Positions 22,692-53,934 are shown, numbered from the stretch's first letter. The stretch: DNA of 64,000 bases from an uncultured Acidimicrobiales bacterium (GCA_963759225.1 CAVWYL010000022.1:311642-375641), one strand, 5' to 3'. Numbers and translations are program-made. Notes: a model not told the origin generated them from the sequence alone.

Positions 22692-22695
22692 CGTG

Positions 22696-23438: not shown

Positions 23439-23474
23439 CCAGTCGAGGTCGGGGCTGTTGTCGGCGAGCGGAAG

Positions 23475-25842
23475 TCACCTGGTCTCCTCGGGCGGGTGCC
23501 GGACCGGGGGATCAGCGGCGACCCGCCCGGCGTGCTGGCTGGCCTGGAAGCGTGACAGCATCGCCCGGACGCGGTCAACGTCACGGCCACCGCTGTCCGC
23601 GGCCGGGCTGGCATGCTCGGCGTCACGGCGGAGGGCCGGCGCCAGGTGGGAGCCCGGCACCCGGCGGGCGAGGCCGTCGCCGGGTGCGGGCGGGATGACC
23701 GGCGGTGCGGCCGGCGTCGCGGTCACGTCGACGGGCGCGGACCGGGCCCCGGGCGACGGCCACACGGAGCGACGCTCGGGGGTGGTCGTCTGGTCGGTGA
23801 CGACGAGGGCGGCCCACCACGTGGTCGTCGTGGCCGGCTCGGCCGGGGTGGCGGTGGGCGCCTGGTCGGGGGTGGCGGGCCCGCGGCGGGGCGTCGCGGG
23901 GACGTCGACCCAGTCGGCGACCGGCCCGAGCCGCGTGCCGGGCAGCACCGGATCGGCCACGGGTCCCATCCGGGGACGGGACAGGCCGGCCTCGGGGTCG
24001 CACCGGCCCGGCCGGCATCGGCGGCGAGCGTGAGCCAGCTCGGGTCGGCGGTCGGTGCGGGGCCGCCCGGGGTCGCGGGGGGCGCGAGCCGCCCCGGGAG
24101 GGCGGGCCGGCCGGGGTCGGTGGCGGCGGGCGGCGGCGCCTGCCGGGGACGGCGTCGTGGGGGCCGGCGGCGTCGCGGTGAGCCATTCGGGCACGGGCAT
24201 GGCCTCGAGCCACGCAGGCGCCTGCGCCGTGTGGGCGCGCTCCGGCAGGGCGTTCGGCTCGATCTCGGCCTCGAACCAGGGCCTCGCCGACAGCGCGGAG
24301 GCCGCGTTGGCGAGCTCGGGGCGTCGGCCCGCTCGTGCCGCTCCAGGCGAGGGCGGCCCGGTGGTAGCGGTCGGCGGCACCGATGGTGGGCGCGGGCGGC
24401 GGGGCGTCGGCCGGCCGATCGCTGATGAGCTCGCGGGGCAGGCTGACGAGGGCGGTGAGGCCGCCGCCGGGGGTCGGGGCGAGCCGGACGACCACGTCGT
24501 AGCGGTGGGCGAGCCGCGCCACGACGTGGAAGCCGAGCATCGTGGCCCGCCGCAGGTCGACCTCCGGCGCCTCGGCCAGCACCCTGTTGGCCGCCTGGAT
24601 GTCGTCGTCGGACATGCCGATGCCGATGTCCTCGATGGTGACGACGAACCGGGTGGCCTCGCCGGGGGAGAGGTGGCTGCGGATGCGCACCTCGGAGGTC
24701 GGCGGCGAGAAGGTGGTGGCGTTCTCGATGAGCTCGGCCAGCAGGTGGGCGAGGTCGGCCACGGCCCGGCCGGCCACGTCGATGTGGTCGTTGACCAGGA
24801 CCTCGACCCGGCGGTAGTCCTCGACCTCGGCGGCCGCGGCCCGCACGACGTCGGCCAGCGGGACCGGGTTGCCCCAGCGCCGCGGCGGGTCGTCGCCGGA
24901 CAGCACGAGCAGCGACTCCGCGTTGCGGCGGATGCGGGTGGCGAGGTGGTCGAGCCGGAACAGGTCCTCGAGCACGTCCGGCGTCTGCTCCCGCAGCTCG
25001 AGGTCGGTGATGACCTCGAGCTGGCGGTTGAGGAGCGACTGGTTGCGCCGGGCGAGGTTGACCAGCAGGCCGGACATGGCCTCCTGCCGCTCGCGCTCGG
25101 ACGCGGCGAGGTCGGCGGCCAGCCCGATGTTGTGCCGCTGCACGTCCTCGGTGTTCTTCCAGAACACGACGACACCGGCGCAGGCGGCCAGCACCGCCAC
25201 GCCGTGCACGAGCGCCCAGGTCCAGGGGCGGTTCTGGCCGGCGGTGTGGTTGAAGATGAGGTCGGCGGCGATCGAGCTGCCGCCCCAGTGGGACACCACC
25301 GTGAAGATCACGTTCCACAGGAACGGCACCCAGTCCTGGTAGAGGGCGATGAGGCCGATGAGGATGAAGAAGTGGAAGTGGGCCTCGATCATGCCGCCCG
25401 ACAGGTGGACGAGGACCACCGAGCAGTAGACGAGGCCGAACGTGGTGAAGAACGACGCGAGGCGGTGGCGCGGGGTGGCGACCCACGCGAACAGCACGGC
25501 GGCCGCGGGCACGGCGACCTCGACGGCCACGTGGCCGGGGTCGTAGCCGCGCACCACGCCGAGGATGAACAGGGCGGGGACGTGCGCCGCCAGGATCCAG
25601 CACAGGAGGTGGTGCCGGTGCCGGAACGTCCTCTCGTCGAGCGTGTTGCCCTTCGGGAGGTAGTCGATGACCGCTCGGACCGCCCGGGAGATGGCCCCGG
25701 GCGACCGGGCTTCGTCGACGGCGGGGGCCGCGGCCGGTGCCGACGCGGCCGCTCCCCCGGCGGTGTGCTTCGCCCGCCGTCGCTCTCTCTCCCGGACCCC
25801 GAGCGCGGCCTCTTGCGGGCCGCTCTGTGTCACCGTCCCCAT
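23475..25842 (-). CDS. cvnA: Conservon sensor histidine kinase-like ATPase with polytopic N-terminal membrane domain; at least one frame break
   Basis: ORF 23623..25842 carries multiple TM helices (HFHFFILIGLIALYQDW), a coiled linker and a HATPase core (LAELIENATTFSPP, IEDIGIGMS). The Pro-rich tail ends RVRAMLSRFQASQHAG in the frame of ORF 23475..25175. The switch is near 24300-24400. Confidence 0.8.
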
Positions 25843-33819: not shown

Positions 33820-34755
33820 ATGACCGATCCGGCACACCGCTTCGAGTCCGTCCCGGCCGTGCGCGACTCGCTCGCCAAGGTCGACTACCTGGCCGACGAC
33901 GGGATCGCCGGTGTCGTCTACCTCGCCGACCGCCTGGGCAAGCCCGTGCTGATCGAGGGCCCGGCCGGCACGGGCAAGACGCAGCTCGCCAAGTCCGTGG
34001 CCGAGATCAGCGGCGCCCGGCTCATCCGCCTCCAGTGCTACGAGGGCCTCGACGAGTCCAAGGCGCTGTACGAGTGGAACTACAAGAAGCAGCTCCTGCG
34101 CATCCAGGCCGAGCGCAACGACGGCGCCACCTGGTCCGAGGTCGAGGACGACATCTTCTCCGACGAGTTCCTCCTCACCCGGCCCCTGCTCGAGGCCATC
34201 CGGGCCGAGGACCCGGTCGTGCTGCTCATCGACGAGGTCGACCGGGTCGAGGTCGAGACCGAGGCGCTGCTGCTGGAGATCCTGTCCGACTACCAGGTCT
34301 CGATCCCGGAGCTGGGCACGGTCACCGCCAACCAGGTCCCGCTGGTGTTCCTCACCTCCAACAACACCCGCGAGCTGTCCGAGGCCCTGAAGCGCCGCTG
34401 CCTGTTCCTCCACGTCGACTACCCCGACCTCGACCGCGAGCGCGAGATCGTGCTGGCCAAGGTGCCGGGCATCACCACCAACCTGGCCGACCAGGTGGCC
34501 CGCATCGTCCGGTCGATCCGCCAGCTCGAGCTGAAGAAGCCGCCGTCGGTGTCCGAGACCCTCGACTGGGCCCGGACCCTGCTGCTGCTGGGCGTCGAGC
34601 AGGTCGATGCGGCCACCGCCACCGGCACGGCCAACATCCTGCTCAAGTACCAGAGCGACATCGCCAAGGCGACCAAGGAGCTGGAGCAGGACGCGACCCT
34701 CGGCGGCGAGGCGGCAGCGGCGGCCGGGGCCAAGCCCTGGCAGCGCAATGGCTGA
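33820..34755 (+). CDS. MoxR-like AAA+ ATPase (CoxD-like)
   Basis: 311 codons from MTDPAHRFESV with Walker A GPAGTGKT, Walker B LLIDEVDR and FLTSNNTRELSEALKRRC. The upstream part of track ORF 33385..34755 has poor GC3. Confidence 0.9.
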   Translation: MTDPAHRFESVPAVRDSLAKVDYLADDGIAGVVYLADRLGKPVLIEGPAGTGKTQLAKSVAEISGARLIRLQCYEGLDESKALYEWNYKKQLLRIQAERNDGATWSEVEDDIFSDEFLLTRPLLEAIRAEDPVVLLIDEVDRVEVETEALLLEILSDYQVSIPELGTVTANQVPLVFLTSNNTRELSEALKRRCLFLHVDYPDLDREREIVLAKVPGITTNLADQVARIVRSIRQLELKKPPSVSETLDWARTLLLLGVEQVDAATATGTANILLKYQSDIAKATKELEQDATLGGEAAAAAGAKPWQRNG

Positions 34756-36406
34756 TCCCGGCGAGGACGCGACGCCCGCGTCGACCAACGGCAACGGCAG
34801 CGCCGCCGCCGGCATCACCGCGGGCCGCCACGGCGCCCGCGCCGGCGACGGGGCCGCCGCCGGCATCGAGGGCCGCCGGGCAGGGGACGGCGAGCCGGCC
34901 CGGCACGCGCCCCGCACGCTCGACGAGGCCGACCGCCGCCTCGCCGAGATCGGCTCGGGCATCGCGCTGACCGAGCTGCTCAGCGGGTTCATCGCCGAGC
35001 TCCGCACGGCGGGGCTGCCCGTGAGCCTCACCGAGAACCTCGACGCCATGGCCGCCATCCAGCACATCCCGCTGGAGGACCGGGACGCCTTCAAGTACGC
35101 GCTGGCCGCCACGCTGGTGAAGAACGCCGCGCACTGGCGGGTGTTCGAGACCGTGTTCGAGGTCTACTTCTCGCTGCGGGGCCGCGAGTACGCCCTCACC
35201 GACGAGCAGGCCGCGGCGCTGGCCGACCTCGACGAGATCATGGGCGAGCAGGAGGGCCAGGAGGGCGACCAGCGCGGCGCCGGCGGCGCCGCCGACCAGA
35301 TGACGCCCGAAGAGCTGGCCGAGATGCTGTTCAAGGCGCTGGCCCAGGGCAACGAGGCCATGCTCAAGGCCCTGGCCCGCCAGGCCGTGCGCCGCTACGC
35401 GGGCATGGAGCCGGGCCGTCCCGTGGGCGGCACCTACTACCTGTACCGCACGCTGCGGAACCTCGACCTCGACGGCGTGCTGGACCGCCTCATGCAGGAG
35501 GCCCGCCAGCAGGCGCCCGACGACCTGACGCCGCTGGAGGAGCGCCTCGAGCGCGACGAGTACGAGGCCCGGATCGACCAGCTCCGCAAGGAGATCGAGG
35601 CCGAGATCCGCCGCCGGCTCGTGGCCGACCGGGGCGTCGAGGCCATGGCCAGGACGCTGCGCAAGCCGCTGCCCGAGGACGTCGACTTCATGCACGCCAG
35701 CCGCGAGGAGATGGCGTCGCTGCGCAAGGCCATCTACCCGCTGACCCGCAAGCTCGCGGTGCGGCTGGCCCGCAAGCGGCGCCACGGCCGCAAGGGCCCG
35801 CTCGACTTCCGGGCCACGGTCCGCCACTCGCTGTCGACCGGCGGCGTGCCGATCGAGCCCCGGTTCCGCTACCCCCGCCCGTCCAAGCCCGAGATCTTCG
35901 TCGTGGCCGACATCTCGGGCTCGGTGGCCGCCTTCGCCCGCTTCACGCTGCACCTGGTGTACGCCATCTCGAACCAGTTCTCGAAGGTGCGGGCGTTCGT
36001 GTTCATCGACGGCATCGACGAGGTGACCCGGCTGTTCGAGGGCACCGAGGACATCGGCGAGGCGGTCCACCGGGTCAACACCGAGGCCGACGTCATCTGG
36101 GTCGACGGCCACAGCGACTACGGGCACGCCTTCGAGATCTTCTGGCAGCGCTACGGCAAGGACGTGGGACCGAAGACCACCGTCCTGCTGCTCGGCGACG
36201 CGCGCAACAACTACCACGCCACCCAGTCGTGGGTCGTCAAGGAGATGCAGCACCGGGCCCGCCACGTGTACTGGCTGAACCCGGAGCCGCGCAGCTACTG
36301 GGACACGGGCGACTCGATCATCGGCGAGTACGCGACGCACTGCGACGGGGTGTTCGAGTGCCGCAACCTCCGTCAGCTCGAACGGTTCGTCGACCACCTG
36401 GTGTAG
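34748..36406 (+). CDS. VWA-domain protein (CoxE-like)
   Basis: 552 codons from MADPGEDATP, with an 8-nt overlap with the MoxR stop. MIDAS motif VVADISGSV. C-terminus ...WLNPEPRSYWDTGDS...CRNLRQLERFVDHLV. Confidence 0.88.
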   Translation: MADPGEDATPASTNGNGSAAAGITAGRHGARAGDGAAAGIEGRRAGDGEPARHAPRTLDEADRRLAEIGSGIALTELLSGFIAELRTAGLPVSLTENLDAMAAIQHIPLEDRDAFKYALAATLVKNAAHWRVFETVFEVYFSLRGREYALTDEQAAALADLDEIMGEQEGQEGDQRGAGGAADQMTPEELAEMLFKALAQGNEAMLKALARQAVRRYAGMEPGRPVGGTYYLYRTLRNLDLDGVLDRLMQEARQQAPDDLTPLEERLERDEYEARIDQLRKEIEAEIRRRLVADRGVEAMARTLRKPLPEDVDFMHASREEMASLRKAIYPLTRKLAVRLARKRRHGRKGPLDFRATVRHSLSTGGVPIEPRFRYPRPSKPEIFVVADISGSVAAFARFTLHLVYAISNQFSKVRAFVFIDGIDEVTRLFEGTEDIGEAVHRVNTEADVIWVDGHSDYGHAFEIFWQRYGKDVGPKTTVLLLGDARNNYHATQSWVVKEMQHRARHVYWLNPEPRSYWDTGDSIIGEYATHCDGVFECRNLRQLERFVDHLV

Positions 36407-37787: not shown

Positions 37788-38606
37788 ATGTCCTTCCCCG
37801 ATCCCCCGCCCCCCGGTCCCGGCGCGCCCGGCGGCCCGCCCCCGGGGCAGTACCCGCCCCCGCCCGGTTCCGGCTACCCGCCCGGCCCCGGCTACCCGTC
37901 CGGCGGGTACCCGCAGGACACCGGCCAACCGCCGGGCCCGGGCTACCCGCCCGGCCCCGGGTACCCCTACGGCGGCCCGCCGCCCGCGGCGCAGGGCACC
38001 GACGGCTTCGCCATCGCGGCGCTCGTGTTCGGCATCATCGGCGGCATCCTGCTGGCGGTCATCTTCGCCATCGTCGCCCTCGTCCGCATCGGCAAGAGCG
38101 GCCGCAAGGGCAAGGGCCTGGCCATCGCCGCCCTGGTGCTGTCCGCGCTGTGGGTCGTCGGCCTGGTCGTGCTCATCGCGGCGGCGGCCGAGGACGAGGC
38201 GGCGCGTGACGACTCCGGCGAGATCGTCGAGGAGGGCGACGTGTCGGCCTTCGACGTCTCGGTCGGCGACTGCTGGAACGACATCCCGGCCCAGCAGGAG
38301 GTCGAGTCGATCACCGCGGTGCCGTGCAGCGAGCCCCACGAGAGCGAGGTGTTCGCGACGTTCGACATCGACCTGGGCAGCGACGACTGGCCGGGCGACC
38401 CGGCGGTGATCGCGGCCGCCGAGACCGGCTGTGTCGAGCGGTTCGGAGAGTTCGTCGGCGTGCCCTACGAGCAGTCGACGCTCGAGGTCTTCTACTTCCA
38501 CCCCACGGAGGACTCGTGGACCACGCTCGACGACCGCGAGGCCGTGTGCTCGGTCGTCGACCCCGCCGGCCAGACCACCGGCTCGCTGGCGGGCGTCGCC
38601 CGCTGA
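37788..38606 (+). CDS. DUF4190-type membrane protein with Pro/Gly/Tyr-rich N-terminus and Cys-containing extracytoplasmic domain
   Basis: Starts MSFPDPPPPGPG... with PGYP repeats. It has two TM helices (FAIAALVFGIIGGILLAVIFAIVALV; LAIAALVLSALWVVGLVVLIAAA) and then GDCWND...VPCSEPHESEVF...ETGC, a septum-formation-like domain. Confidence 0.75.
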   Translation: MSFPDPPPPGPGAPGGPPPGQYPPPPGSGYPPGPGYPSGGYPQDTGQPPGPGYPPGPGYPYGGPPPAAQGTDGFAIAALVFGIIGGILLAVIFAIVALVRIGKSGRKGKGLAIAALVLSALWVVGLVVLIAAAAEDEAARDDSGEIVEEGDVSAFDVSVGDCWNDIPAQQEVESITAVPCSEPHESEVFATFDIDLGSDDWPGDPAVIAAAETGCVERFGEFVGVPYEQSTLEVFYFHPTEDSWTTLDDREAVCSVVDPAGQTTGSLAGVAR

Positions 38607-39940: not shown

Positions 39941-40984
39941 ATGCACGGCCACGAGGGGGGAAGGTGGTCACGATCGCGGACGTCGCGGCGCAGGCGGGCG
40001 TGGGCGCCGGCACCGTCTCGCGGGTGCTCAACGACAGCCCCCGGGTCAGCGAGCGCACCCGGGCCCGGGTGCTGGCCGCCATCGAGGTGCTCGACTACCG
40101 GCCGAACCCGCTGGCCCGGGGCCTGTCGCGGGGGCGGTGCCAGACCCTCGGGGTGCGTCGTTCCGTTCTTCACCCACGCCTCGGCGGTCGAGCGCCTGCG
40201 CGGCGTCGTCGCCGCGCTCGAGGGCAGCCGCTACGACCTCGTCCTGTTCAACGTCGAGTCGCCGGTCCACCGCGACGAGCACTTCGCCACGCTCACCCGG
40301 CGGGACCGGGCCGACGGGCTGCTCGTCATGTCGCTGCCGCCACCGCCCGGCAGCCTCGCGCCGCCTCGCCGACGCCGGCGTCCCGGTCGTGCTGCTCGAC
40401 GCTCGCGGGCACGGGCGTCCCCGCGGTCGTCACCGACGACGTCGACGGCGGACGCATCGCCACCGAGCCACCTCGTCGAGCTCGGGCACGAGCGCATCGC
40501 CTTCATCGGCGACGATCCCGACAACCCGCTTCGGCTTCACCGCCAGCCGCAACCGCGAGCAGGGCTACCACGAGGACGATGGCCGAGGCGCGGGCGTCGA
40601 CGCCCGACCCGGCTTCGTCCGGCACGGCCCCCACGTGCGCAGCGTGGCCCGCCGGCTGGCCGAAGAGCTCCTCGCCCGGCGCGACCGCCCGACCGCGGTG
40701 TTCGCCTCCTCCGACACCCAGGCCCTCGGCGTGCTCGAAGCGGCCGCGCGCCGCGGGCCTCGACGTGCCCGAGCGACCTGTCGGTCGTCGGCTTCGACGA
40801 CATCGAGGTGTCGGGCTACGCGGGGCTGACGACGGTCCGCCAGCCCCTGTTCGAGAGCGGCCGGCTCGGGGCCCGGGTGCTGCTCGCCGCCCTCGGAACG
40901 ACGGGCATCTGCCCGAGCCGACGCGAGCACAGGCTCACTCTCGAACTCGTCGAGCGGTCGACGACCGCCCCGCCACGGTCATGA
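39941..40984 (+). pseudogene. LacI-family regulator (CebR-like), heavily frame-broken
   Basis: The HTH is [23 protein letters not shown]. The remainder is scattered over all three forward frames in at least 8 pieces ([85 protein letters not shown]). Confidence 0.75.
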
Positions 40985-41000
40985 GAGGAACGGTACGCAC

Positions 41001-42236
<1,236 letters not shown>

Positions 42237-42282
42237 GGGGGCTGCAATCCAGCAGATCACGAGAGCAACAAAGGAGAAGACG

Positions 42283-43604
42283 ATGCGATTGCGGGATGAT
42301 GGCGGTGCCGTTCGTCGTCGTGCATGTTCGTCGCCGCGTGCGGCGACGACGGCGGCGACGGAGAGCGGCGGAGGCGACGACGGGAGGCGCGGTGGCGGTG
42401 AGGACACCGGCACGGTCGATGTGCTGAGCGCGATGGAGCCGGCGGAGGCCGAGCGTCATCCAGGGCATCATCGACGAGCTGATCAACTCCGAGGCCGACT
42501 ACACCGTCGAGATCGAGGCCTCAGCAGACTTCGAGGAGCAGTCCACGATCCGCATCGAGGGCGGCACGCTCGACGTGTGCTGTACCCCCAGCCGGGGGCG
42601 GTGCTCGAGCAGGCCGAGGCCGGGAACGCCGTGTCCCTGGAGGACCTCGGGTTCGACATCGCCGAGCTCGAGGAGACGTTCGGGGAGTACTTCCTCTCCC
42701 TGGCGAGGTACGAGGGTGAGCACTACGGCCTGCCCACGAACATCAACCTCAAGAGCATGATCTGGTACCCGGTGGACGACTTCGAGGCAGCCGGCTACGA
42801 GGTCCCCGAGACCTTCGACGACCTGATCGCCCTCAGCGACCAGATCGTCGAGGACGGCGGCACGCCGTGGTGCGTCGGCTTCGAGAGCGGGGGTGCGACG
42901 GGCTGGCCGGCGACCGACTGGATGGAGGACATCATGCTCGCCACCGCGGGCACCGAGGTCTACGACCAGTGGGTCGAGCCACGAGATCCCGTTCAACGAC
43001 CCCGCCGTCGTGGACGCCGGCGAGCCTTCGGCGAGGTCATGTTCACCGACGGCTACGTGCTCGGTGGGGCCGACCAGACGCCCGGCCATCGCCTTCGGCG
43101 ACGCCCCCGGCCCGATGTTCGAGGACCCGCCGGGGTGCTGGCTGCACCGGCAGGCCAACTTCATCAACGCCTTCTTCCCGGAGGACGCCGAGGCGGGCGT
43201 CGACTACGACTGGTTCCCGTTCCCGCCGATCGACGAGCAGGGCACCCTCTTCGGCGGCGAGTTCACGGCCGTCGTTCCGCAACGCGCCGGAGGTCGAGCG
43301 ACTTCCTCGAGCGCTTCGCGGGCGAGGAGGTCCAGTGCGCCCAGGGTGGCGAGCGGCATCGTCGCGGATCTCGCCCAACGTCAACGTCGGGCCCGGACTG
43401 CTACGTCGACACGGTCCTGGCCGATGCCTCCGGGTCCTGACCGACGCGTTGGCGGAGGGCACGGGGCGCTTCGACGCCTCGGACCTGATGCCGTCGGCGG
43501 TCGGGGCCGGGAGCTTCTGGACCGGGATGGTGGAGTACCTGCAGAGCGGGCCTGACTCGCTCGAGCCGACGCCTGGCCGCCATCGAGGAGAGCTGGCCGT
43601 CTAG
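42283..43604 (+). pseudogene. CUT1 sugar-binding lipoprotein (CebE-like), heavily frame-broken
   Basis: An AAGGAG Shine-Dalgarno precedes the ATG at 42283. Recognisable blocks: [76 protein letters not shown]. They are spread across three frames. Confidence 0.75.
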
Positions 43605-43686
43605 CCGGAGTCACTGCGACTGAAGCCGGGTGGAGCGGGCGCTGCGGCCGTCGACCGACTCGTGCCGAGCAGGAGGAGGAGGCCGC

Positions 43687-44827
43687 GTGACAACGACGGT
43701 CGAAGAGCCGGCAGTCGCCCCGAGCCCCGGCCACCGCCCCGCCGCGTCGGCCGCCGGGCCCGTCGGCTGGCGACCGCGGTGGTCGCTCGCGCCGTCATCG
43801 TCCTGTTCGTGCTGCTCTGGCACGTTCGACTTCCTGCGTGACGCGGACACCAACCGCTTCGCCGTGGTCGCCGTCGCCATCGCCATGGGCGTCGGCGGCG
43901 TCTTCTTCCTGTTCTTCGCGATGGACCGTGTCGTCGACTGCCTGCCTGCGGTCGTCCGCGAGCGGCGTGCGGCCGTACGTGTTCGTCGGGCCGGCGCTGG
44001 TGATCGTCGCCGTCTTCCTCGTCTACCCGGTGATCAACACGATCATCATCAGCTTCCGGGACGCCCGGTCCGAGGGCTTCGTCGGCCTCGACAACTACCG
44101 GTTCCTGTTCACCGACGAGAGCATGCTGCGCTCGATCCGCAACACGCTGGGCTGGATCGTGCTGGTTCCCCTGGTCGGCCGTGAGCGTCGGGCTGGTCTT
44201 CGCCACGCTCGCCGATCGCCTGCGCCGCGGCGAGCCGGTGGCGAAGTCGATGATCTTCCTGCCGATGGCGATCTCGCTCGTCGGCGCCGCCGTCGTCTGG
44301 CGGTTCATCTACAGCTTCCGGCCCGAGGGGTTCGGCACCAACATCGGCCTGCTCAACGGGATCAAGGGGGCTCGGCCAGAACCCGGTGCCGTGGCTGCAG
44401 GAGCAGCCGTGGAACAACCTCCTGCTCATCGTGATCATGGTCTGGATCCAGACCGGGTTCGCCATGGTGGTGCTGTCGGCGGCCATCAAGTCGATCCCCG
44501 ACGAGATCATCGAGGCGGCCCGCATCGACGGGGCCTCCGAGTTCCAGGTGTTCTGGCGCATCATCGTCCCGAGCATCGCTCCCGACGATCGTCGTGGTGA
44601 CCACCTACATGGTCATCAACGCCCTGAAGGTGTTCGACATCGTCTTCGTGATGGGCAACGCCGAGACCAACGGGACCGAGGTCATCGCCGAGCGCATGGT
44701 GAGGTGGTTCTTCATCCTCAACCACGACGGGCGGGGTGCGGCCATCGCCGTGGTGCTGTTCCTGGCCGTGATCCCGGTGATGGTCTGGAACGTCCGCCGG
44801 TTCCGCGAGCAGGAGGCGATCCGATGA
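43687..44827 (+). pseudogene. Sugar ABC permease 1 (CebF/MalF-like), frame-broken
   Basis: Pieces: YVFVGPALVIVAVFLVYPVINTIIISF; MIFLPMAISLVGAAVVWRFIY; WNNLLLIVIMVWIQTGFAMVVLSAAIKSIPDEIIEAARIDGASEFQVFWRIIVP; ALKVFDIVFVMG... They lie in different frames. Confidence 0.75.
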
Positions 44828-45775
44828 CCCTCACGGCACCCCTGCCCAGTGACGTCGAGACGGAGGCACCGCCGGCCGCGCCGATGCGTCCGGCGACGTG
44901 CGCAAGGGCGGCTGGTTCGCCCGCATCACCATCATCGTCATCGTCGCTGGTCTGGCGCGTGCCGACCGTCGGGCGTGCTCGTCAGCTCGTTCCGCCCGGA
45001 GGCAGGAGGTCGACACGACGGGCTGGTGGACCGTGTTCGCCCACCCTTCGACTCGGGCCAGTGGACGTTCGAGAACTACCGCGACGCCCTCGACCGGGGG
45101 TTCGGGAACGCGTTCCTCAACAGCCTGGCCGTGACCATCCCGTCGACGGTGATGCCGATCACCATCGCCGCGTTCGCCGCCTACGCCTTCTCGTGGATGG
45201 ACTTCCGGGGCCGCTACGTGATGTTCGTGGCGGTCGTGGGCCTGATGGTGGTCCCGCTCCAGATGGCGCTGATCCCGATCCTGCGGCTCTACACCGGCGG
45301 TGCCGAGATCGCCGGGGTCCCGGTCTTCCCCGACCTCGACCTCGGCGGCACCTTCGTCGGCGGTGTGGCTGGCCCACACCGCGTTCGGCCTGCCGCTGGC
45401 GGTCTACCTCTTGCGCAACTTCATCGGCTCGCTGCCGTCGTCGATCATCGAGTCGGCCAAGATCGACGGCGCCGACCACTTCACGATCTTCTGGCGGCTG
45501 GTGGTGCCGCTGTCGGTGCCCGCACTGGCGGCGTTCGCCATCTTCCAGTTCCTGTGGGTGTGGAACGACCTGCTGGTCGCCTGCGTCTTCCTCGGCGGCA
45601 CCGAGGACAACCGGGTGCTCACCTCGCGCTCCAGACGCTCGTCGGCGCCCGCGGCGAGAACTGGCACCTGCTCACGGCCGCTGCCTTCATCTCCATGATC
45701 CTGCCGCTCGCCGTGTTCTTCGCTCTCCAGCGGTACTTCGTCCGGGGCCTCACCGCCGGGGCGGTCAAGGGGTGA
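44824..45775 (+). pseudogene. Sugar ABC permease 2 (CebG/MalG-like), frame-broken
   Basis: ATGA overlap with permease 1. Pieces: WTFENYRDALDRGFGNAFLNSLAVTIPSTVMPITIAAFAAYAFSWMDFRG; FGLPLAVYLLRNFIGSLPSSIIESAKIDGADHFTIFWRLVVPLS; ends ALQRYFVRGLTAGAVKG. Confidence 0.75.
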
Positions 45776-45863
45776 CGAGCGTACGGGCGCCCGACGCCGC
45801 CGGGCAGCGCCCCCGGCGGGACTCTCGCCCCTGTCGCCGCAGCGCAAGTGGCGGGCGATCCTG

Positions 45864-46349
45864 GTGGCGACGCTCGTGCTCGTGCCGGCGTTCTGGTCGA
45901 TGCTCGCGGGGCTGGTCGCCGCCGCGTCCGACGACCCCGACGCACCCAACCCGGCCGCCGCGCTGGCGTTCGGGTTGGCACTGATCCCGTTCGTGTTCAT
46001 CGTCCTCGCGTTCATGTCCGAGCACCCCGCGGCGGCGGGGGCGGTGGTGCGGGCCATGGGGCTCGCGCTCCTGGTCGGCATACCGGTATCCGCGCTCGCC
46101 GGCGACGCGGTGACGGGCATCGTCGCCGGTGTCGGGGCCGGGGGGGTGGTCGCGCTTCGCAGGGACTCCGACGAGACGGTGCGGGCACGCGTCCTCGCCG
46201 TCCTTTTCGCCGCCGTGTACACGTTCGTGCTCGTGAGGGTGGCCGGTGGGCTCGTCCTGCTACCGGCGCCGATCTTCCCGTTCACCGCGATCGGCATCGC
46301 CGATCATCTGTCCGAGCGCAATCGAGAGAGGGAGCGCTCGCCGAGCTGA
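45864..46349 (+). CDS. Small polytopic membrane protein of unknown function
   Basis: 161-aa ORF with four hydrophobic helices and good GC3. The start may lie a few codons upstream (in-frame RKWRAIL). Confidence 0.5.
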   Translation: MATLVLVPAFWSMLAGLVAAASDDPDAPNPAAALAFGLALIPFVFIVLAFMSEHPAAAGAVVRAMGLALLVGIPVSALAGDAVTGIVAGVGAGGVVALRRDSDETVRARVLAVLFAAVYTFVLVRVAGGLVLLPAPIFPFTAIGIADHLSERNRERERSPS

Positions 46350-47457: not shown

Positions 47458-48911
<1,454 letters not shown>

Positions 48912-48931
48912 CTAGTCGCTCGGACGGCCGG

Positions 48932-51025
48932 TCAGGGCTCCTCGAGCCGGTCGTCCTCGTCGTCGTGGGCGAGCAGGGGATCGGCGCCCCGGGCCACCTC
49001 GAGCGCATCGCCGAAGCCGTCGGCGTCGCTGTCCTCGTGCAGCGGGTTGGTGCCGAGGCTCGCCTCCCAGGCGTCGGACAGGCCGTCGCCGTCGGAGTCG
49101 AGCACGGCGGTCGCCGCCTGCCCCGCCATCGTCGGCATGACGATGCCGGTGGGGGCGGCCGTGGCGTCGCCGAGGGCCGCCAGCTCGTAGGCGTCGGTCA
49201 GGCCGTCGCCGTCGGAGTCGGCGCTGGAGGCGTTGACGCCGGCCTGCACCTCGAAGGCGTCGGACAGCCCGTCGGTGTCGCTGTCGACGCTGAGGGCGTC
49301 GGTCTGGCGGGCCAGCTCCAGCCCGTCGGTGAGCCCGTCGGTGTCGGTGTCGGCCAGCAGCGGGTTGGTGCCCCGCTCCATCTCGTAGGGGTCGGACACG
49401 CCGTCGGTGTCGGAGTCCGGCCCGGCGGTCGGCGACACCGCGGGCACCAGCGCCGGGTCGGGCGCGCCCACGTCGCCGAGCGTCGGGGTGCCGAGCCCGG
49501 GGATGACCGCCGCGTACTGGAAGCGCTCGCCGGTCTCCCACGTGCCGACCCCGTAGCGGGTGCCGCGGGCCTCGATGGTGGTGCCGTCGCCCAGGCTGAT
49601 GGCGACGTGCGCCGACCCCGGGCGCCCGCCGCTCGCGGTCGGCTCCCGGTCGAAGCTGAACAGCAGGGCGCCCGGCGTCTGGGCCGCCTGCTCGACCGGG
49701 ATGACCGCGCCCTGCTCCTTGAGCTCGAGGTACTGCAGCCACGAGCCGTCGGGCATCTCGACGCCGACCTGGGCCGCGGACCACTGGACCAGCTCGGAGC
49801 AGTCGAACACCCCGGGGTCGGCGTCGTCGGGTGCCGCCTCCGACCCGAACACGTAGCTGTCGCCCGTCTGGGCCAGGGCGTGGTCGAGGAACGTGCGGGT
49901 CAGCCCGGCGTCCTCGCCCCCGGGCGCGGGGCCGCCACCGGGTCGGCGCCGTCGCCGGCGGGCGCCACCGCCGGGGCCACCGTCGTCACGCCGGCGATGC
50001 CGGCGATGCCGGGCGGGGTGACCAGCGTGCTGAGCGGGTTCGGCGGCCCGAGCACCGAGCGCGGCGTCGGGGTCGATGTCGACGTCGTCGACCACGCCGT
50101 CGCTGTCGGTGTCGACCGTGGTGGGGTCGATGCCGGAGCTCTGCTCCAGCGCGTCGCGCAGGCCGTCGCCGTCGCTGTCGGCCAGCGTGGCGTCGGTGCC
50201 GAGCGCGGCCTCGAACGAGTCGCTCAGCCCGTCGCTGTCGGTGTCGGTGGCGTCGACCGCGACGGGCCGGCCGTCGGGCCCGAGCGGGACCCCGGCGGCG
50301 GGGTCCCGGCCCGCGGCGACCTCCGCGGCGTCGCGCATGCCGTCGGCGTCGGTGTCGGCGCTGGTGGCGGAGCTGCCGAGCGTGTGCTCGTAGGCGTCGG
50401 ACAGCCCGTCGGCGTCGGTGTCGAGGGCGAGCGCGTTGCTGCCGTGGTCGAGCTCGAAGCCGTCGGTCAGCCCGTCGAGATCGGAGTCGGCGAGCTGGGG
50501 GTTCGTGCCCTTCGACATCTCGAACGCGTCGCTGGCGCCGTCCCGGTCGGCGTCGGGCTCGGCCGGCGGCGCCGCGCCGGCGGGCGGGGGCGATGCCGAG
50601 CCCGGCTCGTCGCCCCCCATGGGGTTCGGGTCGCGGTAGCCGGACACGCCCGAGAAGTCGCCCTGGTACTGCCCACCCGCGGCGGCCCGGGCCTCGTCCA
50701 TGTACTGGCGGTAGTCGTGGCTGGTGCCGGCGTTCCCGGCGTGGGTGACGGTCCACGGGCGCATGTCGGTGCCCTGGCGGGAGACCTCGTAGGCGGCCCG
50801 GGCGGCGTTGGCGGGATCGGTCAGGTCGCCCCACGGGTTGCCCCGCACGTCGGGCGCGATGTTGATCTGCCACAGTCCCCAGGAGTCCTCGCCACTGGGG
50901 TTGTGGGCGTCCGTGTTGCCCCCGGATTCGGCCATCGCGATGGCGGTCCAGGTGACCGCCTGGTCCGGCGTGAAGCCGGCGGCGAGGCAGACGTTGTAGA
51001 TCTCGTTCGCTGTCAACGTGGGCAC
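48932..51025 (-). CDS. Signal-less bifunctional peptidoglycan hydrolase: lysozyme-like/transglycosylase domain + TSP3-type Ca-binding repeats + NlpC/P60 + more TSP3 repeats
   Basis: Track ORF 48932..51145, with probable start at GTG 51025 (AAAGGGGG Shine-Dalgarno; upstream codons have poor GC3). The lysozyme-like motif is AIAMAESGGNTDAHNPSGEDSWGLWQINI. Many DxDxDGxxD repeats are present. The NlpC/P60 core is FDCSELVQWSAAQ...GHVAISLGDGTTIEARG. A compensated double frame shift lies at about 49925-50045. Confidence 0.8.
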   Translation of the reverse strand: MPTLTANEIYNVCLAAGFTPDQAVTWTAIAMAESGGNTDAHNPSGEDSWGLWQINIAPDVRGNPWGDLTDPANAARAAYEVSRQGTDMRPWTVTHAGNAGTSHDYRQYMDEARAAAGGQYQGDFSGVSGYRDPNPMGGDEPGSASPPPAGAAPPAEPDADRDGASDAFEMSKGTNPQLADSDLDGLTDGFELDHGSNALALDTDADGLSDAYEHTLGSSATSADTDADGMRDAAEVAAGRDPAAGVPLGPDGRPVAVDATDTDSDGLSDSFEAALGTDATLADSDGDGLRDALEQSSGIDPTTVDTDSDGVVDDVDIDPDAALGARAAEPAQHAGHPARHRRHRRRDDGGPGGGARRRRRRPGGGPAPGGEDAGLTRTFLDHALAQTGDSYVFGSEAAPDDADPGVFDCSELVQWSAAQVGVEMPDGSWLQYLELKEQGAVIPVEQAAQTPGALLFSFDREPTASGGRPGSAHVAISLGDGTTIEARGTRYGVGTWETGERFQYAAVIPGLGTPTLGDVGAPDPALVPAVSPTAGPDSDTDGVSDPYEMERGTNPLLADTDTDGLTDGLELARQTDALSVDSDTDGLSDAFEVQAGVNASSADSDGDGLTDAYELAALGDATAAPTGIVMPTMAGQAATAVLDSDGDGLSDAWEASLGTNPLHEDSDADGFGDALEVARGADPLLAHDDEDDRLEEP

Positions 51026-51169
51026 GGGGCCGCCCCCTTTGTCGGGGCTCCAAGGTACTCCCCGTGCCGGTAGGGGGGACGGCGCGTCACTGTAGGGTGG
51101 TGCGAGGGGGAAGGAGGCGGTCGGCACAGACGTGTGCTGCGACAACCAGGGTCAAGAGGAAGCAGCCGC

Positions 51170-51745
51170 ATGATCGTCTGCGGCAAGTGCGGTCACGAGA
51201 ACGAGACGGGCCGGCAATTCTGCGAGGAGTGCGATGCGTTCCTCGAGTGGCACGGCGTCGAGGGTCCGCCCGCGGGTCGCGCCAGGACCCCGAGCCAAGC
51301 GGTTCCGCACCCGACCCGGAGCCCGCCACCCCCGGCCGGACCGACCCCGCGGCCCCACCTCCGACCCCCCACACCGACCGGCGCCCGGCCCCGACCCCCA
51401 GCGAGCCCGCCCGCACCCCACCGCCCCCGTCCGCGAGGGACCCGCACCGCCAGCGCCCATGCGCCCGACCCGGCCCGCCGGGGCCCGCCTCGCACCGCCT
51501 GCGCCCGCGCCAGGCCCGCGCCGGCGCCCGTGCGCCACCCGACCGGCCCGCAGCCGCACCGCCTGCGCCACCCGGCCCGGCCCGGCAGGCCAGCCCGCCC
51601 GCGCCGATCGCCGCAGCCACCCGCGCCACGGCCCGGCAGCGGCCCGCCGCCTGCGCCAGCCCGAGCCCGCAGCGCCCGCGCAGGCGGCCCGCAGGCCCGC
51701 GCGCTGCGCCACCCGACCGCGGCCCGCATCGCCCGCGCCACCTGA
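51170..51745 (+). CDS. Zinc-ribbon protein with long proline-rich tail (occupies the iniB position); 3' boundary and frame uncertain
   Basis: An ATG with AGAGGA upstream opens MIVCGKCGHENETGRQFCEECDAFLEWHG (CxxC...CxxC). Downstream CCG-rich DNA is open in all three frames, so the true tail frame cannot be fixed by eye. Confidence 0.5.
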   Translation: MIVCGKCGHENETGRQFCEECDAFLEWHGVEGPPAGRARTPSQAVPHPTRSPPPPAGPTPRPHLRPPTPTGARPRPPASPPAPHRPRPRGTRTASAHAPDPARRGPPRTACARARPAPAPVRHPTGPQPHRLRHPARPGRPARPRRSPQPPAPRPGSGPPPAPARARSARAGGPQARALRHPTAARIARAT

Positions 51746-51915
51746 CGCGGCCCGCGGCCTGCGTCGCCTGCCCGCCCCACCGTCGGCCCGCCCGGCCGCG
51801 CCCGCCCCGCCGGCGCCCGCGCCACCCGATCCGGCCCGCCCCGAGCCCGGGCGCCTGTTCCGCCTGGGCCGGTCCGTGCGCCGGCCTCGCCGGCGGCCGG
51901 GGCCGGCGCCGCCGC

Positions 51916-53934
51916 GTGGGCTGGCCCGCGGGTGCCCGAGCCGGTTCGCCACGCGCCGGCCGCCAGCCCGCGGTCGGCTCGGCCGGCCGCGCCGCACTCG
52001 CCCTCGCCGCGGGTGCGGCCGGGGACCGGCCGGTCGGCTCCCGCCGAGCCCGCACGGCGCCCGCCGCGGCGCCCGAGGCGCCGCGGGCGCGGACGCCATC
52101 GCCTCCCGCGCTCGAACGGGTCCTGGCCAAGGCCCGTGAGCAGGGGCGTGACGACCTCGTCGAGCGGCTCGAGGAGCTCCGCCGCAGCCTCGGGGAGCAG
52201 GAGCTCACCGTCGTCGTCGCCGGCGAGTACAAGCAGGGCAAGTCGACCCTCGTCAACGCCGTCGTCCAGACCGAGGTCTGCCCCGTCGACGACGACGTCG
52301 TGACCTCCGTGCCCACCATCGTCCACTACGGGCCCCGGGCCGAGGCGCTGGTGCACGTCACGCCCGAGGACGGCGGCCCGCCCGAGCGTGCCGGAGGCAA
52401 CGGGGGCGGGCTCGGGCTGACGGCCGAGGGCGCGCCCATCTCGTTCGAGGACCTCCGCCGCTACGTCCGCGGCGATCCGGTCAACGGGGCCGTCCCTCCC
52501 GGGACGGTCCGGGCCGTCGAGGTGCGTCTCGACCGGCAGATGCTGCGCCGCACGGGCCTCTGCTTCGTCGACAGCCCCGGGGTCGGGGGGCTGGAGTCGG
52601 CCGAGGGCAGCGTCGTGCTCGGCGTGCTCAACCTGGCCGAGGCCATGATCTTCGTGACCGACGCCTCCCAGGAGCTGACCCGGGCCGAGATCAGCTTCCT
52701 GCAGGCGGCCGAGGCGCGCTGCCCGAAGATCGTCTGCGTCCTCACCAAGACCGACCTCCATGCCGAGTGGCGCCGCATCGCGGACCTCGACCGCGGCCAC
52801 CTGGCGACGGCCGGGCTCGACATCCCGCTGGTGCCCGTGTCCTCCTTCCTCCGGATGCGCGCGGCCGCCCGGGTGGACGAGGCCATGAACGACGAGTCCG
52901 GCTACCCGGCGCTCGTCCAGTGGCTCCGCACCCGGGTCGTGGCCGAGGGCGGCGCCGCGCAGGCCGCCCGCGTGGACGAGGAGGTCGCGTTCGTCGCCGG
53001 CGAGCTGGCCAAGGTCGTGCAGGCCAGCGCCGAGGTCGTCGCCCGGCCGGAGCAGGCCGAGGCCGTCGTGGCCCGCCTCGCCGACGAGGCCCGCGTGACC
53101 CGGGCCCTGCAGAGCGGGGGCGCACCCTGGCAGCAGGTCCTGTCCGACGGCATCCAGGACCTGGTGGCCGACGTCGACCACGACCTGCGCATCCGGCTCC
53201 AGGGCGTGGTCCGCTCGGGCGAGGACATCATCTCCCGCAGCGACCCGGCCGAGTCGTGGTCCGAGTTCGAGACGTGGCTGCGCCGCCAGGTCGTGACCGC
53301 GGCCGTCGCCACCTACGACTACCTGGCCGATCGGGCCGCCGAGCTGACCGACCGGGTCGGCCAGCAGTTCCAGCGCGACGCCGACAGCCCCATCGCCTTC
53401 TCGATCAGCGCCCCCGTCGCCGCGCTGGAGAGCATCCACCTCGGCGGCGAGTTCGCCCGGAAGGGGGCACGCACGTCGGCGGTGCTGTCCGCGGCCCGGG
53501 GGTCCTACGGCGGCATGCTCATGTTCGGCATGGCCGGCAGCCTGCTCAGCATCCCCGTGGCGGCGCCGGTCCTGCTCGTCCTCAGCCTCGGGCTGGGACG
53601 CCGGGCGCTCCGGGAGGAGAAGACCCGGCGCCACCAGCAGCACCAGGCCGAGGCCCGCGCCGCCCTGCACCGCTACGCCCAGGAGGTCAGCCTGGTCGTG
53701 AGCAAGGAGTGCAAGGACGCCCTGCGCCACACCCAGCGCCTGCTGCGCGACCAGTTCACCGCCCGGGCCCAGCTGCTGCACGAGACCACGACCACCGCGC
53801 TGGCCAGCGCCCAGGCCGCCCGGGCCCTCGACCCCGGCGAGCGGGCCTCGCACCAGCGCGAGGCCGCCCGCGAGATCGGCGAGCTGGGCCGCCTCGGCAG
53901 CCAGCCCCCGGCGGCTCCGGACGGGACGCGGTGA
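51916..53934 (+). CDS. iniA: Dynamin-like GTPase, IniA type (membrane paddle present); start uncertain
   Basis: In the frame of ORF 51064..53934. P-loop AGEYKQGKSTLVNAV, then VDSPGVGG and LTKTDL. The hydrophobic paddle is GSYGGMLMFGMAGSLLSIPVAAPVLLVLSLGLG. The gene is colinear with my memory of M. tuberculosis IniA. GTG 51916 gives a protein close in length to the Mtb IniA as I recall it, but the ORF could extend upstream and be fused to the zinc-ribbon module. Confidence 0.8.
   Translation: MGWPAGARAGSPRAGRQPAVGSAGRAALALAAGAAGDRPVGSRRARTAPAAAPEAPRARTPSPPALERVLAKAREQGRDDLVERLEELRRSLGEQELTVVVAGEYKQGKSTLVNAVVQTEVCPVDDDVVTSVPTIVHYGPRAEALVHVTPEDGGPPERAGGNGGGLGLTAEGAPISFEDLRRYVRGDPVNGAVPPGTVRAVEVRLDRQMLRRTGLCFVDSPGVGGLESAEGSVVLGVLNLAEAMIFVTDASQELTRAEISFLQAAEARCPKIVCVLTKTDLHAEWRRIADLDRGHLATAGLDIPLVPVSSFLRMRAAARVDEAMNDESGYPALVQWLRTRVVAEGGAAQAARVDEEVAFVAGELAKVVQASAEVVARPEQAEAVVARLADEARVTRALQSGGAPWQQVLSDGIQDLVADVDHDLRIRLQGVVRSGEDIISRSDPAESWSEFETWLRRQVVTAAVATYDYLADRAAELTDRVGQQFQRDADSPIAFSISAPVAALESIHLGGEFARKGARTSAVLSAARGSYGGMLMFGMAGSLLSIPVAAPVLLVLSLGLGRRALREEKTRRHQQHQAEARAALHRYAQEVSLVVSKECKDALRHTQRLLRDQFTARAQLLHETTTTALASAQAARALDPGERASHQREAAREIGELGRLGSQPPAAPDGTR

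Follow-up and report, generated by a model that had tools for sequence, protein, structure and literature searches.

Hydrolases that open the cell wall on behalf of a larger machine, and that do so with two catalytic activities, are already known. Here we describe a predicted peptidoglycan hydrolase of this kind, which we rate as a variant in its architecture, encoded in a 64-kb stretch of DNA from an uncultured Acidimicrobiales bacterium (the whole stretch is termed the window; Table 1). The protein combines a lysozyme-like domain and an endopeptidase domain with two blocks of TSP3 repeats, and at the level of its domains is a member of the SLT_3, NlpC/P60 and TSP3_bac families. Most of its relatives are encoded beside contractile injection systems (CISs). 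Judged by analogy, the closest functional counterparts are the diffocin particle's hub-hydrolase, the CwlT-type hydrolases, the virion lysins of phages, and the mycobacterial pair RipA and Rpf.

Comparison with described systems

The hydrolase CD1368 of diffocin, an R-type bacteriocin of C. difficile (8v3w chain H, PMC10996793), likewise pairs a glycan-cleaving lobe with an NlpC/P60 lobe, and its lytic transglycosylase and endopeptidase have been described as a 'pair of scissors' (PMC10996793). It serves a contractile phage-tail-like machine that crosses a thick Gram-positive wall, and the NlpC/P60 domains of the two proteins superpose with a root-mean-square deviation (rmsd) of 1.9 Å over 136 columns. 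Fused to a gp27-like hub, the diffocin enzyme forms a structural part of the baseplate and its gene lies within the operon, whereas the hydrolase described here is free-standing, its relatives are encoded outside the structural operon, and there is no CIS in the window. Furthermore, the glycosidase lobe of CD1368 has been compared with MltA and carries a Tyr-Asp-Asp triad, unlike the lysozyme-like SLT_3 domain found here. Its endopeptidase triad is Cys-His-His rather than Cys-His-Glu, and no TSP3 repeats are described for it (PMC10996793).

The CwlT-type hydrolases of conjugative elements from Gram-positive bacteria (4fdy, 4hpe; Orf14/Orf16/Orf17 of Tn916-like elements, 9ubf) share the NlpC/P60 DL-endopeptidase, which was matched both by sequence and by fold. 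Proteins of this type have an N-terminal lysozyme-type muramidase and the same domain order, and assist a machine in breaching the wall at one place; at its N-terminus, CwlT carries a membrane anchor or signal. They belong to conjugation modules of type IV secretion systems (T4SSs), whereas Pfam scans of the window and the annotated homologous loci yielded no VirB4, VirD4, relaxase or other T4SS gene. In addition, their muramidase is of another family, and no calcium-binding repeats are described for them.

Mycobacterial RipA has the same type of triad and an actinobacterial NlpC/P60 domain of similar sequence and fold, and the motif of Rpf resembles IAMAESGGN of the SLT_3 domain (a weak NCBIfam RpfC match, E 0.054). 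RipA and Rpf are separate septal proteins that carry signal peptides and are exported by Sec or Tat. They combine their two activities as a complex, whereas the hydrolase fuses both in one chain, and they have no TSP3 repeats. The NCBIfam models for RipA/B/C/D score the hydrolase at 17-30 bits against cut-offs of 215-625 (29.7 bits against 425 in one case), and the protein is a relative of the named mycobacterial Rip proteins and an orthologue of none. We know of no link between RipA or Rpf and CISs or dynamin-like proteins.

Among viral sequences, each catalytic domain comes closest to virion lysins of actinophages, and the fold matches agree. The NlpC/P60 domain is 39% identical to a tape-measure / lysin A protein of Brevibacterium phage Cantare, and the SLT_3 domain is 37-41% identical to the entry lysozyme of Rhodococcus phage P19, gp26 of Streptomyces phages Forthebois and WheeHeim, and gp119 of Rhodococcus phage E3. 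These lysins hold one of the two domains and not the full SLT_3-TSP3-NlpC/P60-TSP3 arrangement.

Two further systems resemble the genomic surroundings of the hydrolase family rather than the enzyme. Streptomyces CIS-Sc (PMC10066040, PMC10020575, PMC12237407) is likewise an actinobacterial CIS with a large ATPase-type regulator at one end. These papers describe Streptomyces CISs as being without clear tail-fibre homologues, and report ghost cells that retain their wall and particles that were not found released into the medium; term searches of the papers gave no mention of a transglycosylase, NlpC or hydrolase in the cluster or next to it. The accessory membrane adaptor of this system, CisA, is bitopic, its N-terminal part lying in the cytoplasm and its C-terminal domain outside, and this topology is shared by proteins that carry a single transmembrane (TM) segment in the loci examined here (Hsp70-TM-PD40, zinc-ribbon-TM-CBM, where CBM is a carbohydrate-binding module, and TM-FN3). 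The likeness is topological, and no sequence evidence for homology of CisA and the Hsp70-TM protein was found. The Leo/Eleos pair (10.1101/2022.05.11.491447) consists of two consecutive genes for dynamin-like GTPases, as are also found beside the hydrolase gene in the window. The two-gene operon described for Leo/Eleos includes neither the N-terminal zinc ribbon of the neighbouring protein nor genes such as those for the hydrolase and the FN3 and CBM proteins that are linked here.

A predicted two-headed hydrolase without an export leader

Both catalytic domains exceed their Pfam thresholds, SLT_3 (PF18896) with E 2.6e-23 and 82.7 bits against a cut-off of 27, and NLPC_P60 (PF00877) with E 1.2e-7 and 32.1 bits against a cut-off of 23. 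In the SLT_3 domain, the catalytic residue Glu33 (50927-50929) is followed by Ser34 (50924-50926) and a GLWQIN motif is present; phmmer places Glu33 opposite Glu35 of human lysozyme, in an alignment that is weak. In the NlpC/P60 domain, Cys409 (49799-49801, within FDCSELVQW) and His473 (49607-49609, within AHVAISLG) align with the catalytic Cys and His of Bacillus subtilis CwlO, and RipC was also aligned. Glu485 (49571-49573, within TIEA) occupies the position of RipA Glu444, the third residue of a RipA-type Cys-His-Glu triad. In an alignment of 91 homologues, Glu33, Ser34, Gly50, Leu51 and Gln53 of the first domain and Cys409, His473 and Glu485 of the second are invariant. Both predicted muralytic active sites are intact and conserved, and aimed at different types of bond: the SLT_3 domain should cut glycan strands, and the NlpC/P60 domain should cut peptide stems. 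The initial annotation of this gene, which had proposed a bifunctional murein hydrolase with a Cys-His core in the middle of the protein and had called for structure prediction of both folds, is in agreement with these findings, as no catalytic residue is missing after alignment.

A structural model was generated with AlphaFold2 (AF2) from the 91 sequences; an earlier model from 12 sequences was poorer, with a predicted local distance difference test (pLDDT) score of 64.5. The mean pLDDT is 82.6, with values above 90 in both catalytic domains and of 93-98 over residues 1-110. Foldseek matched the NlpC/P60 domain with a probability of 1.0 and returned 46 PDB matches at E <= 1e-3, including Acd24020, SagA and NlpC B3 at target-normalised template modelling (TM) scores of 0.77-0.84; further matches were RipA/RipB, 4fdy, 4hpe, 8v3w_H and a baseplate protein of phage phi812. 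Matches to PDB lysozymes were weak when queried with the poor 12-sequence model. Among viral models, the SLT_3 domain matched 'Transglycosylase SLT domain 1' (TM-score 0.59) and an entry lysozyme, and the two domains together returned entry lysozymes, SLT-domain proteins, tail lysins, and minor tail and tape-measure proteins.

The minus-strand reading frame that holds the gene extends over 48932-51145, and the evidence agrees with the GTG start at 51025 that the initial annotation had preferred on account of a Shine-Dalgarno sequence and upstream loss of G+C at third codon positions (GC3). The G-rich sequence AAGGGGG, which resembles a Shine-Dalgarno site, is found 7 nt upstream of this codon, and GC3 is 0.95-0.96 inside the gene as opposed to 0.75 over the 40 in-frame codons upstream. 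The 697-residue product is identical to the database protein P0001, which stems from this assembly or one almost identical to it. In 93 of 102 homologues the start precedes the conserved motif W-T-A-I-A-M/L-A-E-S by 24-26 residues; in the window, AIAMAESGGN begins at residue 28, close to the position of about 25 residues from the N-terminus that had been noted for the lysozyme-like motif. When 12 Acidimicrobiales loci are aligned as nucleotides, their start codons share one column, and conserved non-coding blocks precede them, reaching the ATG of the divergent neighbour. A TTG start at 51145 was considered and rejected, as GC3 drops in the added segment, the segment is conserved as non-coding DNA, and it holds no hydrophobic stretch.

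The Kyte-Doolittle maximum over the entire protein is 1.05 (19-residue windows), and the N-terminus is not hydrophobic in any of the 102 homologues. Given the alignment of starts, the GC3 profile and the lack of hydrophobic N-termini among homologues, the lack of any leader for Sec or Tat export or of the lipoprotein type is a trait of the whole hydrolase family and not an accident of annotation; for this one protein, the initial annotation had already remarked on the missing hydrophobic leader. The protein is strongly acidic (pI 4.05), with 131 Asp and Glu residues against 37 Lys and Arg residues.

The region between the hydrolase gene and the divergent zinc-ribbon dynamin gene contains the blocks CAGCACAC, CACCCTACAGTGACGCG and GGAGTAYCTTGG, which are conserved among Acidimicrobiales loci, and is presumed to be a shared promoter region for the two genes. 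A scan of 48700-51300 for sigma-70 and terminator consensus sequences found none. A perfect 9-bp inverted repeat (51021-51029 and 51060-51068) could pair the GTG start with upstream mRNA sequence. A start-sequestering hairpin was dropped as a candidate, as its folding z-score is -1.16, 23 of 200 shuffled sequences fold equally well, and it is not clearly conserved.

Each catalytic domain precedes one block of TSP3 repeats. The tandem units are of about 22 residues and match TSP3_bac (PF18884) with E 4e-41, and the 13 DxDxDGxxD motifs observed compare with 0.02 expected and a maximum of 1 in 2000 shuffles. In the first block, five of the six spacings are 22 residues and one is 37. The Asp and Glu columns of the repeats are invariant in the 91-sequence alignment, and the repeats presumably bind Ca2+. 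The initial annotation had located them correctly, at about 50060-50590 and about 48950-49440, ranges within which both blocks fall, and had called them unusual for such an enzyme. They are a distinctive design for a murein hydrolase, although not the oddity of a single protein, since the decoration is a conserved hallmark of the whole family.

Linkage of the hydrolase family to CIS gene clusters

More than 100 proteins have the SLT_3-TSP3-NlpC/P60-TSP3 architecture, and all those deposited under the name of an organism are from Actinomycetota. Identity to the hydrolase is 58-77% for proteins from Acidimicrobiales metagenome-assembled genomes (MAGs) and about 40-45% for those of Kribbella, Microlunatus, Nocardioides, Ornithinimicrobium, Angustibacter and Motilibacter. 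The survey of gene neighbourhoods that the initial annotation had recommended was conducted by tblastn on 78 species-level loci, and counts were made on the 51 loci flanked by 8 kb or more on each side. The hydrolase gene is CIS-adjacent in 37 of these, adjacent to a pair of dynamin genes in 10, and adjacent to neither in 4.

In four annotated loci, the gene after that of the hydrolase lies on the same strand and encodes a large regulator with AAA, MalT-WHD and BTAD domains; a convergent CIS baseplate and spike operon comes next, in the order Tail_P2_I, Baseplate_J, gp25, PAAR, VgrG, CIS_tube and gp19. The gene after Tail_P2_I is the convergent regulator and not a fibre gene. Across 36 loci the regulator begins a median of 52 nt past the hydrolase stop codon, and this gap, together with the shared strand, points to co-transcription of the two genes. 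Upstream of the hydrolase, a divergent gene for an Hsp70-like single-pass membrane protein is present in three of the four annotated loci (all except L005). More broadly, an Hsp70/actin-like ATPase-TM protein is the divergent neighbour of the hydrolase in 35 of the 51 loci, chiefly the CIS-linked ones; examples are found in L002, L003 (7664-9916, minus strand), L004 and L063 (7506-9890), and the proteins of Kribbella and L063 continue after the TM helix with a C-terminal PD40/Tricorn beta-propeller.

In a neighbour-joining tree built from the two catalytic domains, the Acidimicrobiales sequences, that of the window among them, form one clade nested among CIS-linked sequences. Only one locus, L021 from a MAG, bears a Streptomyces label, and in the tree it clusters with those of Kribbella. 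Linkage to dynamin genes (10 of 51) spans several lineages with differing gene orders. In L061 the hydrolase-regulator pair is followed by a dynamin module in place of a CIS, and two contigs carry both a CIS-linked copy and, about 32 kb away, a dynamin-linked SLT_3-TSP3 paralogue, with the CIS genes inward of the first copy and the dynamin pair inward of the second. The paralogue in L063 (9983-12619 and 3999-7457) combines SLT_3 and TSP3 domains with no Pfam match to NlpC/P60, and its beta-propeller match is weak and below threshold. Some 32 kb separate it from a CIS-linked full-length copy on the same contig, and it lies in a module with genes for dynamin, Hsp70-PD40, FN3 and zinc-ribbon proteins and a TagF-like teichoic-acid polymerase (GT2 + Glyphos_transf).

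A possible accessory wall-cutter of CIS-related systems

Because the gene lies outside the structural operon and beside the regulator, we favour an accessory factor over a structural subunit or a cargo. Specifically, the hydrolase may be an accessory wall-cutter of a CIS-related envelope-breaching system that remains inert until it is at the wall, an interpretation to which we assign a probability of roughly two in five. The enzyme would be made in the cytoplasm without an export signal and would be harmless there, since it could not cross the membrane alone, and its acidic TSP3 blocks would probably be unliganded at the low cytoplasmic concentration of Ca2+. It would gain access to the producer's own sacculus only after firing of the CIS, or a dynamin-associated module, had breached or remodelled the membrane. 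At the wall, the spacers would become rigid on binding Ca2+, and cutting of both glycan and peptide bonds by the two catalytic heads would open the wall and result in regulated lysis or release from within. Such calcium gating, if true, could explain how a cytoplasmic lysin is kept safely.

CISs are common in actinobacteria, where a cytoplasmic, fibre-less CIS has to cope with a thick Gram-positive wall. Studies of Streptomyces CISs found the crossing of this wall hard to conceptualize (PMC10066040), and particles of extracellular CISs (eCISs) are freed by lysis of the producer (PMC8213781). The hydrolase family, whose gene precedes the CIS-flanking regulator gene on the same strand in most lineages outside Streptomyces, offers a testable candidate for the missing wall-cutting step, be it in release, outward firing or regulated cell death.

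The same enzyme could instead be borne on the particle, docked on the CIS baseplate or spike, perhaps through its repeats, and carried, as the sheath contracts, into the wall of a Gram-positive neighbour or, on outward firing, of the producer itself, in the manner of the diffocin enzyme and of tail-associated phage lysins. The pair of chemistries is that of the diffocin CD1368 lobes, and the NlpC/P60 domain matches both 8v3w_H and the phi812 baseplate protein (PMC10996793). The nearest viral sequences comprise a tape-measure protein, entry lysozymes of tectiviruses and a baseplate or virion protein of a myophage, the viral fold matches include tail lysins and minor tail and tape-measure proteins, and the CIS hub of these loci (Phage_GPD/base_V) has no hydrolase domain of its own. 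We nevertheless consider a particle-borne lysin unlikely, as the gene is never within the structural operon, lying instead on the opposite strand beside the regulator, and as none of 121 homologues is fused to CIS hub, PAAR or baseplate domains. Moreover, the 2.9 million viral contigs of IMG/VR hold no full-length member of the family, only the SLT_3 domain, and the Acidimicrobiales copies have no CIS nearby.

The hydrolase gene in the window

The initial annotation had assigned the hydrolase to a wall-breaching machine encoded nearby. For the family this idea gains support, as 37 of the 51 loci abut a CIS baseplate cluster, which is the position expected of a tail lysin, and the viral relatives are virion-associated lysins. 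For the window it does not hold: no CIS gene was detected in the 64 kb by tblastn with CIS markers at E < 1e-6 or by Pfam scans of open reading frames (ORFs), and the Pfam scans revealed no structural genes of T4SSs, type VII secretion systems (T7SSs) or prophages. The T4SS, T7SS and prophage contexts were considered and rejected on these grounds. The window belongs to the dynamin-adjacent class: in the Acidimicrobiales branch, the hydrolase gene is paired divergently with genes for two dynamin-like GTPases, the first with a zinc ribbon, and is accompanied by two bitopic membrane proteins and a DUF4157-HET-C toxin-like gene (Table 1). At the level of sequence, the enzyme is a leaderless, putatively muralytic protein, as an endolysin would be.

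Table 1. Coordinates of the hydrolase gene, its domains and its neighbours in the window.
Feature	Position	Strand	Basis or remark
Hydrolase ORF, complete, 697 aa + stop	48932..51025	-	GTG start at 51025
Predicted SLT_3 lysozyme-like / lytic-transglycosylase-like domain, aa 11-92	50750..50995	-	Pfam, invariant residues, AF2
TSP3 repeat block 1, seven DxDxDGxxDxxE units, aa 158-316	50078..50554	-	Motif, Pfam
Linker read out of frame, annotated aa 326-369, Arg-rich	49919..50050	-	GC3, homologue alignment, pLDDT
Predicted NlpC/P60 endopeptidase domain, aa 388-494	49544..49864	-	Pfam, CwlO/RipC alignment, Foldseek
TSP3 repeat block 2, six units, aa 537-676, then acidic C-terminal tail	48998..49417	-	Motif, Pfam
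Divergent intergenic region, hydrolase / zinc-ribbon dynamin gene	51026..51169	.	Blocks conserved among Acidimicrobiales loci
Candidate partner: zinc ribbon + dynamin-like GTPase 1, hydrophobic segment, split over two frames	51170..53934	+	
Candidate partner: dynamin-like GTPase 2	53931..55451	+	
Candidate partner: bitopic zinc-ribbon protein, TM ~aa 283, CBM/discoidin-like domain	55470..56912	+	
Candidate partner: bitopic membrane protein, TM ~aa 240, then FN3	56919..58643	-	
DUF4157 (eCIS_core, HESAH) + HET-C toxin-like gene, ~1060 aa, at least 3 frameshifts	58767..62045	+	

The gene at the far end of this set encodes an N-terminal, metallopeptidase-like DUF4157 domain (E 4e-12) followed by HET-C, and is intact and in the same position in L008 and L013. 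DUF4157 is reported to be a highly eCIS-specific marker of CIS-associated toxins (PMC8213781), and a distant homologue of the DUF4157-HET-C protein (34% identity over half of the query) is encoded in the middle of a CIS operon of Kitasatospora. Just one of the five other contexts examined is inside a CIS operon, and the neighbour is therefore only suggestive of a CIS link. A DUF4157-HET-C homologue in L084 (13325-16363, minus strand) is an orphan adjoining a Trans_reg_C-BTAD regulator; regulators with BTAD domains are of the type reported to control eCIS operons (PMC8213781).

Several points weigh against the accessory interpretation. The surveyed loci are not phylogenetically independent, and 37 of 51 overstates the number of independent events. 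No Acidimicrobiales locus has a CIS structural gene within 10 kb, so the link of the window copy to CISs is by descent and by its DUF4157 neighbour only, and DUF4157-HET-C is an orphan in four of the five other contexts. In a Pfam enrichment survey of eCIS operons NLPC_P60 was not enriched (odds ratio 0.48); the operon boundaries of that survey may exclude the hydrolase gene. No holin-like or other membrane-breaching partner was identified at hydrolase loci, and no small multi-TM gene is conserved beside the hydrolase in the annotated loci, although no dedicated holin search was made. Finally, both the gating by calcium and an attack on the wall of the producer itself are steps that we infer, and the evidence does not distinguish cutting from within from cutting of a target cell.

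The toxin-like neighbour also bears on whether the hydrolase is itself an injected cargo, that is, a CIS effector that kills Gram-positive competitors by degrading their wall, as the muramidase and amidase effectors of type VI secretion systems (T6SSs) do. The protein is leaderless and CIS-adjacent, eCIS toxins with predicted peptidoglycan-hydrolase activity exist (EAT10, PMC8213781), and one report describes Tse3, a muramidase effector of the T6SS, in conjunction with calcium binding (PMC3792639). This role seems very improbable to us for several reasons. The hydrolase has neither a DUF4157 domain nor a disordered N-terminal packaging region, its catalytic domain beginning at residue 5-10, and no immunity-like gene is conserved next to it. 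The gene lies beside the regulator and not at the 3′ end of the structural operon, and a protein of 697 residues with long extended repeats would probably fit the lumen of the tube awkwardly.

Bacterial dynamins act in septation and membrane repair, and the hydrolase could be a housekeeping enzyme of division or cell separation, similar to RipA and Rpf, that works with the dynamins at septa or where membranes are repaired. Export would then follow a non-classical route, and the adjacency to CISs in other lineages would reflect no more than shared regulation. The RipA-type Cys-His-Glu triad and the Rpf/lysozyme-like ESGGN motif fit such a role, as does the finding that the only conserved partners in the window are dynamin-like GTPases and envelope-spanning proteins. 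We regard it as quite unlikely. The family is patchy rather than universal, 73% of the well-flanked loci are CIS-linked, and a toxin-like DUF4157-HET-C gene is among the neighbours. Known division hydrolases bear signal peptides, whereas members of this family never do, and the dynamin pair resembles the anti-phage pair LeoBC/LeoA rather than a demonstrated division factor. The B. subtilis dynamin DynA is cited in the Leo/Eleos report (10.1101/2022.05.11.491447).

The resemblance to the anti-phage pair derives from PADLOC, in which the L001 orthologue of GTPase 1 matches nearly the whole LeoBC profile (E 2.8e-15) and that of GTPase 2 matches LeoA (E 1.3e-10) over the P-loop region only. A two-gene dynamin-like operon protects against phage (10.1101/2022.05.11.491447), and the window might hold a defence island in which Leo/Eleos-like dynamins and membrane sensors free the hydrolase and the HET-C toxin upon phage attack, lysing or killing the infected cell. 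The layout is also superficially like that of GTPase-centred conflict systems with zinc-ribbon, TM, FNIII and Hsp70 components (Kaur et al. 2020, PMC7159879). The GTPases of the window match Dynamin_N only, with no DO-GTPase family and no GAP1 domain reported by Pfam, and the LeoA match is confined as noted. Furthermore, PADLOC returned nothing for the hydrolase or for the regulator, FN3 and zinc-ribbon proteins, and the window shows no known defence genes on either side of the module. Defence is for us the least probable of the roles considered here. A DO-GTPase / GAP1-N2 system (Kaur et al. 2020) was rejected as an identity for the neighbours, these being dynamin-family GTPases without GAP1 whose FN3 and zinc-ribbon companions match in layout only.

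Returning to the accessory wall-cutter, a more speculative extension is that the hydrolase is one component of a larger set. Such a set may comprise the leaderless, calcium-gated, two-headed lysin, the bitopic Hsp70-TM-beta-propeller, zinc-ribbon-TM-CBM and TM-FN3 proteins and, in some lineages, the dynamin-like pair, and recurrent linkage to dynamins and bitopic proteins suggests that membrane remodelling is part of the same process. In monoderm actinobacteria this set would breach the envelope so that a cytoplasmic CIS could fire through, or be released across, the thick wall, and in Acidimicrobiales it would be a stand-alone module for lysis, release or cell death together with the DUF4157 toxin. 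We hold this combined proposal to be doubtful. Literature searches returned no paper that links the architecture to CISs, which is weak evidence of novelty given an incomplete library, and term searches of the Streptomyces CIS papers and of two large eCIS surveys gave no mention of such an enzyme.

A frameshifted linker in the deposited protein

The Arg-rich linker between the first repeat block and the NlpC/P60 domain, which the initial annotation overlooked, is a frameshift artefact or a double frameshift. In the alternative frame this segment reads GPPNPLSTLVTPPGIAGIAGVTTVAPAVAPAGDGADPVAAPRPG, which is rich in Pro, Ala, Gly and Val and scores 169.5 against the closest homologue (P0002), compared with 30 for the annotated reading. 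GC3 is 1.00 in the alternative frame and 0.73 in the annotated one, and the AF2 model has pLDDT below 50 over residues 317-369. The linker is read out of frame owing to two compensating indels, one of which is probably an undercalled G-run near CCCGGGGGCGAG; the catalytic domains are untouched.

The assembly is rich in indels, and the frame of high GC3 changes repeatedly within genes. Other frame breaks in the window occur in the GH1 gene (47458-48896), in the sugar ABC-transporter permease and ATPase genes (about 40000-46300), in the first dynamin gene and in the DUF4157 gene. Given these many breaks, and given that several of the closest relatives of the hydrolase derive from long-read soil MAGs, assembly error is the likeliest cause. 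Many deposited protein calls of this contig are probably truncated or scrambled, and the lesson for annotation is that the deposited hydrolase protein itself holds a frameshift-scrambled linker.

Other genes in the window

The genes downstream of the hydrolase code for a GH1 beta-glucosidase, a LacI-type regulator and a sugar ABC transporter; this stretch shows synteny with L001 and seems to have no connection with the enzyme. At greater distances, the window encodes a Beta_propel (PF09826) protein (19951-21408, minus strand; E 3e-115), a conservon-like operon (22128-25557, minus strand) with an HATPase_c sensor, Roadblock/LC7, DUF742 and an ATP_bind_1 small GTPase, and a MoxR-type AAA ATPase and, after it, a VWA CoxE-like protein (33820-36406, plus strand), the two being separated by a gap or frame break. 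A membrane protein with DUF4190 and Septum_form domains is encoded at 38025-38606 (plus strand). Beyond the DUF4157 gene, a PETase-like / cutinase-type alpha/beta hydrolase (62769-63737, minus strand; Pfam PETase E 6e-114) adjoins a GNAT acetyltransferase (62017-62676).

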